NCBI GenBank assembly: GCA_944390195.1
Contig: CALXOZ010000001.1
Span: 154,663-218,662, forward strand
Reading direction: 5' to 3'
Source of the DNA: an uncultured Alphaproteobacteria bacterium
GTDB lineage: Bacteria > Pseudomonadota > Alphaproteobacteria > CAAGCB01 > CAG-977
DNA length: 64,000 bases
Below, one piece after another: positions 59,187-64,000 of the stretch. A model generated the notes under the pieces. That model had not been told where the DNA came from. It worked only from the letters and a program-made list of their open reading frames with translations, and searched no databases. The translations under genes and the position numbers were made by a program. Numbering within the stretch: the first letter of the stretch is position 1; every line of letters begins with the position of its first letter.

Positions 59187-59203
59187 GGAGATATTTGAAA
59201 ACC

Positions 59204-61870
59204 ATGACAAAATGGGTTTATAAATTCGGTAACGGAAAAGCCGAAGGTCATGCCGCCGATAAAAATTTGCTGGGTGGTAAAGGGGCTAATCTGGCAGAAA
59301 TGAGCTCAATCGGAATCCCTGTTCCTCCGGGCTTTACTGTCACAACGGAAGTTTGCACCTATTTCTATGAAAACGGAAAAACTTTTCCCGCCGATTTAAA
59401 AGAACAAGTTCAAGAAGGGGTTGCTCATTGTGAAGCAATCTTGGGGCGCAAGTTCGCCGATCCGGAAAATCCTTTGTTGTTCTCCGTACGTTCCGGGGCT
59501 CGTGTTTCCATGCCCGGTATGATGGACACGGTCTTGAACTTGGGATTGAATGATGAAACCGTTAAAGGGTTGGCTAAAGCTTCCGGTAATGAACGCTTTG
59601 CTTATGACAGCTATCGTCGGTTCATTCAAATGTATTCCAACGTCGTGTTGGGTATGGATCATCATGATTTTGAACATGTCCTGGAAGGCTTGAAAAATGC
59701 TAAAGGATATAAATCCGATGTCGAAATGACCGTAGACGATCTGAAATATTTGATCGAAGAATACAAAAAAATCGGAGCCGCTGCAGGAAAACCTGTTCCT
59801 CAAGACCCGCAAGAACAGTTGTGGGGCGGAATCGGCGCCGTTTTCAATTCTTGGATGGTTGACCGCGCCATTTATTACCGTAAATTGAACAATATTCCCG
59901 AATCCTGGGGAACCGCTGTTAATGTCCAAACGATGGTGTTCGGTAACTCGGGTGATAACTCCGCTACAGGTGTTTGCTTCTCTCGTGATCCGTCCACGGG
60001 ACGTAATGTCTTCTATGGCGAATATTTGAAAAATGCTCAAGGGGAAGACGTCGTCGCCGGTATCCGTACGCCACAGCAAATGTCTAAAGAAGGGAAAAAG
60101 GAACGCGGTTCCGATTTGCCTTGTTTGGAAGAAGAAATGCCGGAATTGTACAAGCAATTGTGCGATATCCGTGAAACGTTGGAAAAGCATTACCGCGATA
60201 TGCAGGATATGGAATTCACCATCCAAGACGGTAAGTTATATATGTTGCAGACCCGTAACGGAAAAAGAACAGGGGCTGCCGCTTTGAAAATCGCCGTCGA
60301 TATGGTGAATGAAGGCTTGATTGACAAAAAAACGGCTTTGACGCGTGTCGAACCTCAACAATTGGACGCTTTGTTGCATCCGACTTTGGATCCTAAGGCT
60401 AAAAAAGCCGCTAAAGTTATCGCTACAGGTTTGCCGGCTTCTCCGGGGGCTGCCGTCGGTCAAGTCGTCTTTTCCGCTGATGATGCCGAAAAATGGGCTG
60501 AAGAAGGGAAAAAAGTCGTTCTCGTCCGTGTCGAAACGTCTCCTGAAGATATTCACGGAATGCATGTCTCTCAAGGGATCTTGACCGCTCGCGGAGGCAT
60601 GACCTCTCACGCCGCTGTTGTGGCGCGCGGTATGGGAACACCCGCCGTCTGCGGTGTCGGTGAAGTGAAAATCGATTATGCCGCTAAAACGATGACCGTT
60701 GGCGATATCGTTGTTAAAGAAGGCGATATGATCACTTTGGACGGTTCCACCGGTGAAGTCATCTTGGGCGCTGTTGCTACAAAAGAACCTGAATTGGTCG
60801 GTGACTTCGGGCTGTTGATGGGATGGGCTGATGAAGTCCGTAAGTTGAAAGTCCGTACTAATGCCGATACGCCTCATGATGCTCAGGTCGCTCGTAAATT
60901 CGGAGCTGAAGGTATCGGTTTGTGCCGTACGGAACACATGTTCTTTGATCCTCAACGTATTTCCCATATGCGTCAGATGATTCTGGCAACAACCGAAGAT
61001 GAACGTCGTAAGGCTCTGGCAAAATTGTTGCCTTATCAGCGCGACGACTTTAAGGGCTTGTTCCTTGCTCTGGAAGGCTTGCCTGTTACAATCCGTCTGC
61101 TTGATCCGCCTCTGCATGAGTTCTTGCCTCAAAAGGAAAACGAACAACGCGAAATCGCTAAAGAGTTGGGTGTAACTTTGGAAGCTGTTAAAGCGCGTGT
61201 TGAACAGTTGCATGAAGCCAATCCGATGTTGGGACATCGTGGCTGCCGTCTGGGGATTACTTATCCGGAAATCTATGAAATGCAGGCTCAGGCAATCTTT
61301 GAAGCCGCTGTCGAAGCTTCTAAGGAATTGGGTAAACAGGTCGAACCTGAAGTCATGATTCCTTTGGTCGGTACGAAAAAAGAATTGGATATGATGAAGG
61401 CGGCCGTCGTTAAAATGGCTGAACAAGTCATGGAAAAAGCCGGTACGAAATTCAATTATATGATCGGTACGATGATTGAATTGCCGCGTGCTGCTTTGAC
61501 TGCTGATAAAATCGCTGAAACAGCTGAATTCTTCAGCTTCGGAACGAACGATTTGACCCAGACGACTTTGGGAATGAGCCGTGACGATGCCGGGGCTTTC
61601 CTGCCCGAGTATGTGGCTAAAGGCATTTTCGCCCGTGATCCGTTCGCTACGATCGACGAAGAAGGAGTCGGCGAAATGGTTCGTATCGCAGTTGAAAAAG
61701 GATCGAAAACACGTCCTAATATTAAATTGGGAATTTGCGGTGAACATGGTGGTGACCCGACGACAATTGATTTCTGTCATCGTGTCGGTTTGACTTATGT
61801 CTCTTGCTCGCCGTACCGTGTGCCTATCGCTCGTTTGGCTGCGGCTCAGGCTGCCGTGCGCAACGGGTAG
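59204..61870 (+). CDS. ppdK: pyruvate, phosphate dikinase
   Basis: [34 protein letters not shown]-terminus. Central His domain [18 protein letters not shown]-utilising TIM barrel. Alternative TTG start at 59195. Confidence 0.95.
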
Positions 61871-61890
61871 TCCGGTCTATTGAACTCAAG

Positions 61891-61923
61891 GTACTCTGCC
61901 GTTTTTCGGCAGAGTACTTTTTT
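61891..61923 (+). terminator. rho-independent terminator after ppdK
   Basis: GTACTCTGCCGtttttCGGCAGAGTAC followed by TTTTTT. Confidence 0.75.
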
Positions 61924-62025
61924 AGTTATAAAAAAATGGCTTTGATATTCGTGTGTCTGGAATAAATGTATAAAAAATTCATTTTAGAAAATTCTTTTTT
62001 TTGCGATTACCGGAAAATAAAAAAA

Positions 62026-62373
62026 ATGAAAACAGCCATTTTTTGGAAAACACCAACACGATTGATTGTTTTCAGCGAAAAAAGTACTGTTAAAACATCT
62101 TTAAATATTGCGGATTATTCGGGGGCTCATATCGAAATGTGGGAAAAAGTAAGAAAAAAATATCCCGCCTTGGCTTTCTATGAATATGATGATTTCCCTC
62201 GCGGTCGATTGGTCTGGAACGCAAATGAAAATAAATATTATTTTTATGCTGATAAAAATATATTGAACGATCTTGATGCTGTTAATGCCATTCTAGAACA
62301 AATTGGAATTAATAAAAAAGAATATCCAATTCTCTTTTCTAAAGACAGTCATTATAAAACTTCTTTTTCTTGA
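62026..62373 (+). CDS. hypothetical small protein (islet cargo)
   Basis: Likely start MKTAIFWKTP. 115 aa. No recognisable motif. Lies between intact ppdK and its degenerate 3' copy. Confidence 0.4.
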   Translation: MKTAIFWKTPTRLIVFSEKSTVKTSLNIADYSGAHIEMWEKVRKKYPALAFYEYDDFPRGRLVWNANENKYYFYADKNILNDLDAVNAILEQIGINKKEYPILFSKDSHYKTSFS

Positions 62374-62649
62374 TATGTTTTGTATGAAAGTGAATCCGGA
62401 AAAGGAATAGTCAAATTAATTAAATTCCCCTTGTTTATTAGTAAACAATTCCGATGGTTTTATTTGTGTCTGAAATTTTTATGCTAAAATCATTTATTTT
62501 TTAACCGGATTTTGGAAACGGAGGCTTTGTTTTGAAGATGGCTTATTCCTGTACAAAAAGCATTAATGGATTGACTTGCAAAGTGTAAAAAAACACTGAT
62601 AGAAAAGTTTACTGTGTGTTATCTTTCTTTAAGAAAAGGAGTAAAATCT

Positions 62650-62856
62650 ATGAAATTAAATAAAAAAAGAAATCCGATAGCTTATGAATTGCGATGTTCG
62701 CGAAAATATGCGATGAGAATTGTTAAAAATAAAAAAATTTATTCTCGTAAAACAAAACATAAAAAAAGCTCCATTAAAAAATATATGGAGCTTTCTTTTA
62801 TGCCGGTGTTTTTTTCAGCGTCTTTAAAAAGCTGTGCCGTTAGAGAAGATATCTGA
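62650..62856 (+). CDS. hypothetical small very basic protein (islet cargo)
   Basis: Strong AAGGAG RBS before the ATG at 62650. 68 aa with about 30% Lys/Arg. Confidence 0.35.
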   Translation: MKLNKKRNPIAYELRCSRKYAMRIVKNKKIYSRKTKHKKSSIKKYMELSFMPVFFSASLKSCAVREDI

Positions 62857-63023
62857 TTTTTTCCGGATTTAAGTTTGAAATACAGCTGTTTTTGATTTAG
62901 TACATGGGCAAAACCGTATGAAAGGCGATTATAAGAATTCTGTTATGATTGAATTGCCTCATGCCACTTTGAAAACTGATAACATTGATTAAACAGCTGA
63001 ATTATTCAATTTCAAAATAAATA

Positions 63024-63300
63024 TTTTGATTCAGACGACTTTGATCCTGAGCTGTAACAACGCAGAAGCTTTCCTGCTCGAAACTTTGGCTGAAAGCATT
63101 TTCTTCGTGATCCTTTGCTATGATTGATGAAAATGGTGTCGGCAAAACGGTTCACATTGTGTCCGATAATTCGCTCTGATATCTGATCGGGAATTTGTGG
63201 TGAACATGACTGCAACTCGACGACAACTGTTTCTGTCATCAACGCGTTTTGACTTTTATCGTAAGTCTGTTGGCATCAACCATAAACGGATCGGGGGCTA
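63024..63300 (+). pseudogene. degenerate duplicate of the ppdK 3' end (about 280 bp, frameshifted with stops)
   Basis: By-eye DNA alignment to ppdK 61552-61870: cagacgactttg..gctttcctgc.cgA...ggc.aaaggcattttc..cgtgatcc.t..cta.gat.ga.gaa...gtcggc.aaa.ggtt.....gggaatttg.ggtgaacatg.....c.cgacgacaa.tg.tttctgtcatc. Translates as QTTLILSCNNAEAFLLETLAESIFF.. versus intact [25 protein letters not shown].. Confidence 0.75.
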
Positions 63301-63413
63301 CTGTGATTTAACACTTGAAAATACAGTGGAGAGTTTTCTCTTAAGTGAGAGGATTTTGTCAGTAAAAGATATATATTGGAAAAGGCAGAGCGTTTCCTTG
63401 TCAGCTTTTTTAT

Positions 63414-63650
63414 TCAGTCACTTTTTAATTTTTTAATAAAATCAGAAGCATCTATACCGATATAGTCTGCGATGTTTAAAAATTCGATTACGTCTAAACG
63501 CCGTTCGCCATTTTCATATTTTGAAACGTATGACTGCGGCTTTTTCAACATCTGAGCCAATTGAACTTGCGTAATGTTTTTGTTGCGGCGTTCTTGAATT
63601 AACAGGTGCAGAAATAAACGGTAACGATCGGTAAAAACAGATTTTGTCAT
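63414..63650 (-). CDS. XRE-family helix-turn-helix transcriptional regulator
   Basis: ITQVQLAQMLKKPQSYVSKYENGERRLDVIEFLNIADYIGI is the Cro/C1-type HTH. True start MTKSVF (ATG at 63650, AAGGA RBS). Confidence 0.7.
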   Translation of the reverse strand: MTKSVFTDRYRLFLHLLIQERRNKNITQVQLAQMLKKPQSYVSKYENGERRLDVIEFLNIADYIGIDASDFIKKLKSD

Positions 63651-63732
63651 TGATTCTATCCTTTCTGCTTGATAAGGATAAAATCCTGTTTCAGGATATC
63701 CCAAAATAGGATATTTCGGAGTGTCTGTTTTT

Positions 63733-63993
63733 ATGAAATCAGTGTTTTTTATTGCCTTATTTTTCCTTTGTGCATGTTCTGATAATAAATTTTCGGGTTA
63801 TTACGAACCTTTGAAAATAGATCAAAATGATGAAATTTTTACAGAGAAAAAAACTGTACACAAAAAAGACGTTATTATTATCGAAACGACAAATTATGCT
63901 CAAAGAATAAAGACATATACGGATCAAGGATATGTTGTTATCGGTCAGTCTGTTTTTATGGGTAAATGGGAACCGAGATATCTGGCTGTGTAA
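63733..63993 (+). CDS. small lipoprotein (hypothetical)
   Basis: Signal plus lipobox MKSVFFIALFFLCAC followed by SD. Divergent from the XRE gene. Confidence 0.45.
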   Translation: MKSVFFIALFFLCACSDNKFSGYYEPLKIDQNDEIFTEKKTVHKKDVIIIETTNYAQRIKTYTDQGYVVIGQSVFMGKWEPRYLAV

Positions 63994-64000
63994 ACGGCTC

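Follow-up and report, generated by a model that had tools for sequence, protein, structure and literature searches.

Downstream of the pyruvate, phosphate dikinase gene ppdK, the window (the whole analysed stretch of 64,000 nucleotides) contains a decayed direct copy of the 3′ part of this gene. Sequence comparison with related species indicates that this copy lies in the ancestral position of the native ppdK 3′ end. We interpret the locus as the fossil of one old homology-anchored insertion for which no integrase is needed, and we give this reading a probability of about 0.5. A unit of 1473 bp would have entered ppdK at around codon 745, bringing a ppdK 3′ end of the same lineage, its own terminator, ORF115 and an ArfA-like gene. 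As the joint between the unit and the chromosomal 5′ part is in frame, ppdK would have stayed whole. The native 3′ end would have been shifted 1.47 kb downstream, still beside its old neighbour, an XRE-family regulator gene (XRE), and would have decayed neutrally toward AT. The features of the region are the following.

59195-61870, plus strand: ppdK, intact, coding for pyruvate, phosphate dikinase; full-length match to the TIGR01828 equivalog (profile positions 2-865 of 865) with 1410 bits
61426-61801, plus strand: ppdK codons 745-869, the duplicated segment in its working copy, from local alignment; repeat families D1, D2, D7
61871-62898, plus strand: AT-rich cargo of the insertion, 27-32% GC; absent from the related species L107, L108, L110 and L010
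61888-61926, plus strand: intrinsic terminator now serving ppdK; 14-pair stem (61888-61920), then a T-run
62026-62373, plus strand: ORF115, small conserved protein with ten homologues, function not assigned
62650-62856, plus strand: ORF68, small basic DUF7230, ArfA-like protein, with an AAGGAG ribosome-binding site
62760-62803, plus strand: terminator-like hairpin and U-run inside ORF68; predicted -22 kcal/mol, z -5, 53 nt before the stop codon
62899-63260, plus strand: decayed ppdK fragment, displaced copy of codons 745-869; 74.7% identity to 61426-61801
63261-63377, plus strand: stretch of 117 bp aligning to nothing, at the expected place of the old ppdK tail and the start of the spacer
63378-63413, plus strand: remnant of the ancestral ppdK terminator (loop, 3′ arm, T-run), abutting the XRE stop codon
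63414-63650, minus strand: XRE-family regulator, ancestral neighbour of ppdK; HTH_3, E 1.7e-12

The duplicated ppdK segment

Local alignment identifies 61426-61801 and 62899-63260 as the two copies, with 74.7% identity over about 360 aligned bases and several indels. The decayed copy carries indels and a stop codon, and its similarity to ppdK is spread over three reading frames. All three frames are found by tblastn with ppdK (E 8e-14). A profile built from 12 ppdK 3′ ends recognizes the decayed copy by nhmmer with E 4.6e-35, and a control block of 100 bp reaches z = 20.6 against shuffles. The degenerate 3′ duplicate of ppdK claimed in the original prediction is thus real, and the peptide pair cited for the two copies is correct. 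An alignment failing to support homology had been named as grounds for rejection; the similarity obtained is far above chance. Furthermore, several independent metagenome projects have yielded the same structure, in over 20 contigs and at 99.3-99.7% identity. A chance similarity or an assembly artefact, which we hold to be practically impossible, is already refuted by these scores and by the independent contigs.

The extent of the duplication has to be revised. It was given as 61552-61870 against 63024-63300, and the aligned segments start about 125 bp further upstream. It was also said to run to the end of ppdK at 61870, and homology for the last 69 bp cannot be shown. Comparison of 61326-61425 with 62799-62898 on the left side gave no signal, and neither did the final 69 bp of ppdK and the terminator (z -1.1 to 0.2); the match of the 12-sequence profile ends at 63254-63268. 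The search for a third ppdK fragment, or for a second direct repeat further to the right as had been suggested, gave none. Likewise, no second ppdK fragment is found in 80 other ppdK loci.

Empty site in related species

In four related species (L107, L108, L110 and L010), the order is glyQ, glyS and ppdK, then about 100 bp, then XRE, and the insert is absent. The window has 1512 bp (61866-63377) at the place of 69 bp in L107. Orthologues of XRE (71-90% identity) directly adjoin ppdK in all four species, and the XRE-family regulator reported after the degenerate copy is confirmed by its HTH_3 match. The version of XRE on record is the 78 aa one starting with ATG; a look-up of the 96 aa version with a TTG start gave no match. 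A blastn comparison of the window with L107 gives a match of 85.8% identity starting at 63378. The 36 bp beside XRE (63378-63413) score z 7.7 against the ancestral ppdK terminator of L107, a score reached by 0 of 1000 shuffles. Given the empty site and the terminator remnant beside XRE, the decayed copy therefore occupies, as far as the sequences tell, the position of the old 3′ end.

The DNA behind the working gene is different. The spacer 61871-62025 has no similarity to the ppdK-XRE spacers of L107, L110 and L010 (z 0.0-1.3), in a test whose power is limited because the spacers of the relatives are themselves poorly conserved (z 2.9 for L107 against L010). The ppdK terminator, correctly placed by the original prediction in the intervening DNA, is judged from its sequence to be part of the inserted DNA and not of the ancestral spacer. 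The proposal that a substitute ppdK 3′ end was inserted and that the native end was displaced and is decaying is therefore upheld by the empty sites, the terminator remnant and the unrelated spacer. The comparison of the region downstream of ppdK in related genomes, which had been recommended, reveals the empty site.

The 117 bp at 63261-63377, between the decayed copy and the terminator remnant, were compared on both strands with the tail and terminator of ppdK from the window and from L110, without a significant match. A single score is raised (z 3.6, plus strand, against the L107 tail), and it comes from the terminator remnant with which the tested segment ends. An inversion of 63255-63385 was tested against the ppdK tail and terminator and rejected. 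The expectation based on L107 for the last 69 bp of the gene plus the spacer part is 133 bp. Since the old tail and about 60 bp of the old spacer are unalignable here, the homology-anchored insertion has to be supplemented by an extra event, which could be small deletions or a local replacement.

The same region bears on an alternative in which ppdK was never interrupted. Patchwork DNA would instead have entered the spacer between ppdK and XRE, at the stop codon or immediately behind it, bringing together a new terminator, ORF115, the ArfA-like gene and an internal ppdK fragment captured as filler. Template switching could have produced it, or else a small tandem duplication with a later insertion. 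This agrees with the decayed copy aligning only to the internal segment 61426-61801, and with the last 23 codons, the most conserved part of ppdK, being undetectable in it even with the 12-sequence profile. However, the terminator remnant is found beside XRE and what follows the working gene bears no relation to the ancestral spacer, the fragment is directly oriented, and the 117 unalignable base pairs are close in length to the old tail and spacer (133 bp in L107). In addition, the version with a tandem duplication needs two events with a coincident junction. We regard this alternative as possible but rather unlikely.

Common origin and decay of the two copies

The working ppdK has its likely start at the ATG at 59204, which gives an 888 aa product as called in other assemblies. 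Three Pfam domains are matched, and the GC content is about 47%. Its nucleotide identity to relatives is about 79-81% along the full length, without a drop at the 3′ end. The differences between the two copies amount to 26%, 24% and 26% at codon positions 1, 2 and 3, with no excess at the third position. A foreign origin of the present ppdK 3′ end was rejected based on this codon-position analysis and on the uniform identity to relatives. The decayed copy shares 16 of the 22 derived bases that are specific to the lineage of the window, and at third positions it is 74% identical to the ppdK of the window versus 46-52% to five relatives. These base comparisons show both 3′ copies as members of the same lineage, with donor and recipient segments that would have been nearly identical at the time of the event.

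Most of the differences (68 of 91) are derived in the decayed copy, where 43 changes are GC-to-AT versus 12 AT-to-GC. Within the species, the decayed copy has 22 variable columns per kb versus 1.3 in the 5′ part of ppdK. The substitution pattern and the within-species diversity show neutral decay toward AT. Any microhomology at the junction is unreadable after 25% decay.

Genes of the inserted unit

The inserted unit consists of the ppdK 3′ end 61426-61870 and the cargo 61871-62898; its 1473 bp equal the repeat spacing. Only two small genes are present, ORF115 and ORF68. They had been described as tiny orphan ORFs: the reading frames are real, and both have homologues. The ten homologues of ORF115 have 53-60% identity and 41 invariant columns, and they are surrounded by ordinary genes of the chromosome rather than by those of mobile elements. 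Only 1 column of ORF115 is variable within the species. No relatives of it are found in viral contigs, and its AlphaFold model is poor (pLDDT 56). The homologues of ORF115 and those of DUF7230 occur in other, mutually unrelated contexts. A possible donor arrangement, in which ORF115 and the ArfA-like gene come after ppdK, is found neither in these contexts nor in 80 genome loci, a limited sampling.

An exhaustive phmmer search with ORF68 gives 15 short proteins of 39-76 aa, with 48-64% identity over the first ~45 residues only. Within the family, 14 of 16 members match DUF7230 and 2 of 16 match Pfam ArfA (E 0.003). Searched against the PDB, the family profile finds only ArfA chains, with E 4e-4 to 9e-4 compared with E 1.4 for the match ranking next, and its match to ArfA covers the [18 protein letters not shown] region. 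ORF68 alone matches neither the ArfA model nor any PDB chain. An A-tract, a hairpin and a U-tract are found at the same codon position in all five homologous loci, after the RK.KHKK motif, with differing stem sequences and with the stop codon about 10-75 nt beyond the U-tract. Compensatory changes are seen in 5 of the 13 aligned pairs of the hairpin. The length of the poly-T after the ORF68 hairpin varies within the species, and this frame-shifting variation is tolerated. With the predicted terminator lying inside the reading frame, the mRNA would lack a stop codon. ORF68 is thus, on in silico evidence, a candidate alternative ribosome-rescue factor that would be read from a non-stop mRNA.

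DUF7230 genes occur in chromosomes and in phages. The phage copies inspected have ordinary stop codons or lie inside larger ORFs, and none contains a terminator within the ORF. A role of ORF68 as an excisionase was considered and dropped: its HTH_17 score (E 0.05-0.1) is too weak and is overtaken by the DUF7230 and ArfA evidence.

Flanks, fixation and route of insertion

No recombinase, integrase, excisionase or phage gene was found between the two copies with Pfam, NCBIfam, PHROGs and PADLOC, and no recombinase within ~8 kb on either side, where the flanks are conserved and syntenic. No known RNA family is detected in 61700-64000 at E up to 1. On its right, the decayed copy is followed by XRE, LysR, S15 peptidase, deacetylase and LexA, in synteny with the sister species. 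This right flank is ancestral chromosome and not part of an element, which speaks against the suggestion that an element may extend past the end of the window. Integrase, excisionase or phage genes, for which a search further right had been recommended, were not found in this conserved flank. In L098, an unrelated ankyrin-repeat gene stands to the left of window position 61982, which may reflect variation between strains or a chimera made in assembly.

All contigs of the same species carry the insert and no further cargo, and they show that it is fixed in the species. The same duplication in relatives without cargo had been named as the outcome that would favour a simple duplication. What we see comes near to it in that all contigs of the species share the structure and none has additional cargo.

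The original prediction had explained the locus by site-specific integration. The insert would then be the remnant of an element with a tyrosine or serine recombinase that used an attB site inside ppdK and provided a replacement 3′ end, and whose integrase and most cargo were later deleted. The direct repeats 61426-61801 and 62899-63260 together with the empty site in the sister species are what attL and attR would look like, and the topology is identical to that of icd-e14-icdC (PMC13626634). The cargo is AT-rich, DUF7230 is found on 39 IMG/VR viral contigs and matches small PHROG families (E 4e-4), and ORF68 has the very weak score for the excisionase-type HTH_17. However, repeats and an empty site do not discriminate because routes free of integrase share this feature. 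There is no recombinase in the insert or its flanks, the element would measure only 1473 bp, the insert is fixed and not polymorphic, and the substitute end is of the same lineage without initial divergence. The cargo is also not typical of mobile elements, the ORF115 family being chromosomal and absent from viral contigs and DUF7230 being shared by chromosomes and phages. None of the viral DUF7230 loci holds a ppdK fragment, and the count of second fragments is 0 of 80 other ppdK loci. Site-specific integration is thus not borne out, and we consider it decidedly unlikely.

Less probable still is that the unit is a miniature module lacking an integrase, which would use a conserved internal site of ppdK with a recombinase acting in trans, repair the gene with its own 3′ end and so spread the ArfA-like gene. 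If true, it would represent a new kind of satellite integrative cassette with a gene of central metabolism as attachment site.

We return to the homology-anchored insertion, with which the arrangement of one complete and one 5′-truncated ppdK copy, flanking the insert in direct orientation, is in agreement. Two routes could lead to it. In the first, Campbell-type integration, a small circular DNA would have entered by one homologous crossover. Such integration leaves one complete and one 5′-truncated copy in direct orientation, with a repeat spacing equal to the length of the circle. Most known cases with 5′-truncated fragments are laboratory plasmids. The ppdK locus shows neither a circular donor nor a plasmid backbone. 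The second route, homology-facilitated illegitimate recombination, would combine a homologous exchange within ppdK on one side with illegitimate joining on the other. We infer the route and the nature of the donor molecule from a structure that both routes would give alike.

Comparison with known systems

The prophage e14 of Escherichia coli K-12 is inserted in the 3′ part of icd, supplies a substitute 3′ end and leaves the pseudogene icdC at its far side (PMC13626634). It is about 15 kb long and is excised by site-specific recombination on SOS induction (PMC13626634). As in e14/icd, a housekeeping metabolic gene is kept functional at the ppdK locus, with the displaced native C-terminal fragment present as a direct-repeat pseudogene. 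In contrast to e14, the ppdK insert is only 1.47 kb long, has no recombinase and is fixed in the species, its copies are 25% diverged by decay, and the duplicated stretch (at least 376 bp) is much longer than that of e14.

A resemblance in gene order is seen in the displaced orphan 3′ fragments of Rhs, CDI and T6SS effector loci (C-terminal displacement), for which an integrase-free homology-facilitated illegitimate recombination was proposed (PMC5361080). There, as at ppdK, small genes stand behind a full-length gene, and an older, 5′-truncated 3′ end comes after them. These loci swap variable toxin domains and immunity genes under diversifying selection, whereas the two ppdK copies encode the same conserved domain; unlike those swaps, the insertion brought no new function to ppdK.

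For ORF68, the relevant systems are ArfA of E. coli and BrfA of Bacillus subtilis. A terminator within the reading frame that yields an mRNA without stop codon was shown for brfA and is described for arfA (PMC6881298). ORF68 resembles both in being a small basic protein with a terminator, here a predicted one, within its frame. Unlike ArfA, its sequence similarity is remote, its Pfam family is DUF7230 and ORF68 itself lies below the ArfA model; its host, a gut alphaproteobacterium, also differs from E. coli and B. subtilis. DUF7230 proteins, which combine an ArfA-like motif with a conserved predicted in-frame terminator, are thus testable ribosome-rescue candidates in gut Alphaproteobacteria and other lineages.

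Among these systems, ppdK provides a clean natural case; sister species still have the empty site, and neutral decay makes it possible to date the displaced end. The gene would have remained functional despite an insertion in its coding region, thanks to a matching 3′ end on the incoming DNA. Topology alone is a poor ground for inferring an element with an integrase, because homology-anchored recombination, as considered here for ppdK, leaves the same footprint as e14.

Decayed copy of the ppdK 3' region

An intact, full-length ppdK is followed downstream by a decayed direct copy of its own 3' region. The features of the interval are as follows.

59195..61870, + strand: ppdK, full length and intact (TIGR01828 equivalog, 1410 bits over the whole profile; 3/3 Pfam domains)
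61888-61920: strong intrinsic terminator, between the ppdK copies
62026..62373: ORF115, plausible start
62650..62856: ORF68, plausible start, AAGGAG ribosome-binding site
62899-63260, + strand: decayed direct ppdK copy, aligning to ppdK 61426-61801
63414..63650, - strand: XRE-type regulator, 3' of the decayed copy

The two aligned segments are 74.7% identical over ~360 aligned bases with several indels and one in-frame stop, and the decayed copy is translatable only in pieces, across three frames. Its similarity to ppdK far exceeds chance (E 8e-14 by tblastn and 4.6e-35 by nhmmer with a 12-sequence ppdK profile; a 100 bp control block reaches z 20.6). The duplicate described in the original prediction is confirmed, but its limits have to be moved, the copy beginning ~125 bp upstream of where it had been placed. 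No homology of the copy to the final 69 bp of ppdK or to the ppdK terminator is demonstrable. The GC content across the ~1 kb separating the copies is 27-32%.

Fixation within the species

Within the genome collection, the ppdK loci closest to that of the window belong to metagenome-assembled genomes that bear the label Alphaproteobacteria, with L001 first at 93% protein identity. Exact-protein look-ups identified >20 contigs, drawn from several independent metagenome projects, with 99.3-99.7% identity to window 61000-64000. All of them have the same ppdK-insert-copy structure, which is thus real and fixed in the species.

Some differences between same-species contigs are observed in the vicinity. 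In L098 (1-2125), an ankyrin-repeat gene and an unrelated minus-strand ORF stand in place of everything left of 61982; the junction is at window 61981/61982, so that ppdK and its terminator are replaced. The difference reflects a rearrangement or insertion in that strain immediately 5' of ORF115, or else a chimeric assembly. In L081 and L091, both from one sample, glyQ is called as 200 aa after two extra small gene calls (107 and 71 aa), while in the window and other contigs it is a 293 aa gene; the short call is probably a frameshift or assembly error.

Empty site in relatives

In the relative L010 (PpdK 86% identical), 89 bp separate the ppdK stop from the XRE orthologue, and this spacer contains a bidirectional terminator. 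A search for XRE homologues found the closer relatives L107 and L108 (XRE 90% identical) and L110 (87%). Their gene order is glyQ, glyS, ppdK, ~100 bp, XRE, LysR, S15 peptidase, orf131, deacetylase, LexA, and ORF115, ORF68 and the ppdK fragment are all absent from their ppdK-XRE region. By blastn, window 56040-61865 matches L107 1055-6895 and window 63378-63716 matches L107 6965-7303, leaving 1512 bp between the matches in the window and 69 bp in L107.

The 36 bp at 63378-63413, which abut the XRE stop codon, are the counterpart of part of the L107 ppdK terminator, namely its loop, 3' arm and T-run (z 7.7, equalled by 0/1000 shuffles). The spacer after the working ppdK (61871-62025) shows no resemblance to the relatives' spacers (z 0 to 1.3). 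Together these two comparisons argue that the decayed copy holds the ancestral position, and that the added DNA would be the working 3' end, its terminator and two small genes. The topology first proposed, an insertion into ppdK that brought a replacement end and displaced the native one, was right, as the empty site also shows.

We also considered that ppdK was never cut and that the fragment is captured filler in a patchwork insertion into the spacer. The 117 bp at 63261-63377, between the last alignable base of the fragment and the terminator remnant, lend this some support, matching none of the sequences tested on either strand. However, their length is near the 133 bp expected for the old gene tail plus spacer. 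Also against filler are the new spacer that follows ppdK and the remnant of the ancestral terminator next to XRE, and this reading is unlikely.

Origin of the substitute 3' end

Differences between the ppdK copies are equally frequent at the three codon positions (26%, 24% and 26%), so the copies carried no prior synonymous divergence. Counting third positions alone, the decayed copy matches the window's ppdK at 74% and five relatives at only 46-52%. Furthermore, it shares 16 of 22 states of the window's ppdK that are missing from all five relatives, and no fall in identity of the window's ppdK to relatives is seen at its 3' end. By these observations, both copies arose from the ppdK of the window's own lineage. 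The insertion occurred late on the branch leading to the window's species.

Of 91 differences, 68 are derived in the decayed copy, where GC-to-AT changes number 43 and AT-to-GC changes 12. Within the species, variable columns per kb amount to 22 in the decayed copy and 1.3 in the 5' part of ppdK. Since the insertion, the downstream copy has thus undergone decay free of constraint.

Genes between the copies

The two ORFs had been taken as orphans, which no longer holds, as homologues were found for both. ORF115 has ten (53-60% identity, 41 invariant columns), forming a family of conserved 113-116 aa proteins found only in related gut-metagenome contigs, for example L101 8001-8342, L102 8001-8351 and L103 938-1279. 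They are flanked by ordinary chromosomal genes in mutually unrelated neighbourhoods, one with an RNase T-like gene and an AAA ATPase on its two sides, another downstream of an ATP synthase operon and a MatE gene. For ORF115, no confident family or fold was obtained, its AlphaFold model being too poor for use.

An exhaustive phmmer search with ORF68 found 15 proteins of 39-76 aa, 48-64% identical over about the first 45 residues only. In Pfam, 14/16 family members match DUF7230 and 2/16 match ArfA. Against all PDB sequences the family profile hits only ArfA chains, over a 27-residue stretch (E 4e-4 to 9e-4; next match E 1.4). The loci with a hairpin inside the ORF are listed below.

Window 62650-62856 (hairpin 62760-62803)
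L105 25-255
L106 1093-1302
L111 3001-3174
L113 3001-3165

In all five readable loci, the conserved RK.KHKK motif is followed immediately, within the reading frame, by an A-tract, a GC-rich hairpin and a U-tract, and the stop codon, as read from the sequences, lies about 10 to 75 nt beyond the U-tract. Stem sequence changes from locus to locus. Among same-species contigs, ORF68 is invariant in its N-terminal part, but the poly-T downstream of the hairpin is of variable length, shifting the frame of the tail and giving gene calls of 59, 64 and 68 aa.

Where transcription ends at a terminator within the ORF, the mRNA is non-stop and the factor accumulates only when trans-translation fails; this has been demonstrated by experiment for brfA and is also described for arfA (PMC6881298). 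From our sequence reading, the five ORF68-family loci listed above likewise have an intrinsic-terminator-like hairpin and U-tract before the stop codon. Based on this design and the ArfA profile matches, ORF68 is a candidate ArfA-like alternative ribosome-rescue factor with a remote sequence link to ArfA. Viral contigs carry DUF7230-like genes as well, 39 of them in IMG/VR. The copies inspected among the viral loci L114-L151 have ordinary stop codons or are embedded in larger ORFs; no in-ORF terminator was seen in them, and none adjoins a ppdK fragment. On the IMG/VR contig L139 the motif ...RNVIAEDLRTPKYRKRVVRSRKGYTRKDKHK... lies within a giant phage ORF. The ArfA-like DUF7230 gene ORF68 is the part of the locus most deserving further study, the ppdK footprint itself being modest in interest.

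Mechanism and comparison with known systems

The integrative element originally proposed is not supported. The 1473 bp unit (ppdK 3' end 61426-61870 and cargo 61871-62898) and its conserved flanks contain no recombinase, excisionase or phage gene, the insert is fixed, the replacement end is of the same lineage, and 0/80 other ppdK loci carry a second fragment. That the unit is the stump of a formerly larger element is improbable. Nor does an element extend past the window, since the right flank is ancestral chromosome; gene order past position 64000 in the window's species is that of L107, L108 and L110. Beyond lexA, ~5-10 kb past the window end, strains differ (L084 1-4414 versus L081 1-4191), one with large serine recombinase, Fic and ankyrin genes and another with ParE/HTH and HTH_17 genes. 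The region has the look of an independent insertion hotspot with no connection to ppdK.

Read most simply, the insertion was a homology-anchored event requiring no integrase. A small circular DNA carrying the ppdK 3' end and the cargo could have entered by a single crossover, or homologous exchange within ppdK could have been combined with an illegitimate joint at the opposite end. The latter route has been put forward for 3' "orphans" displaced in Rhs and T6SS effector loci (PMC5361080). The e14-icd-icdC arrangement of E. coli has the same topology as found at ppdK but differs in that e14 uses an integrase (PMC13626634). The ppdK feature is a fresh instance of an already known type of footprint.
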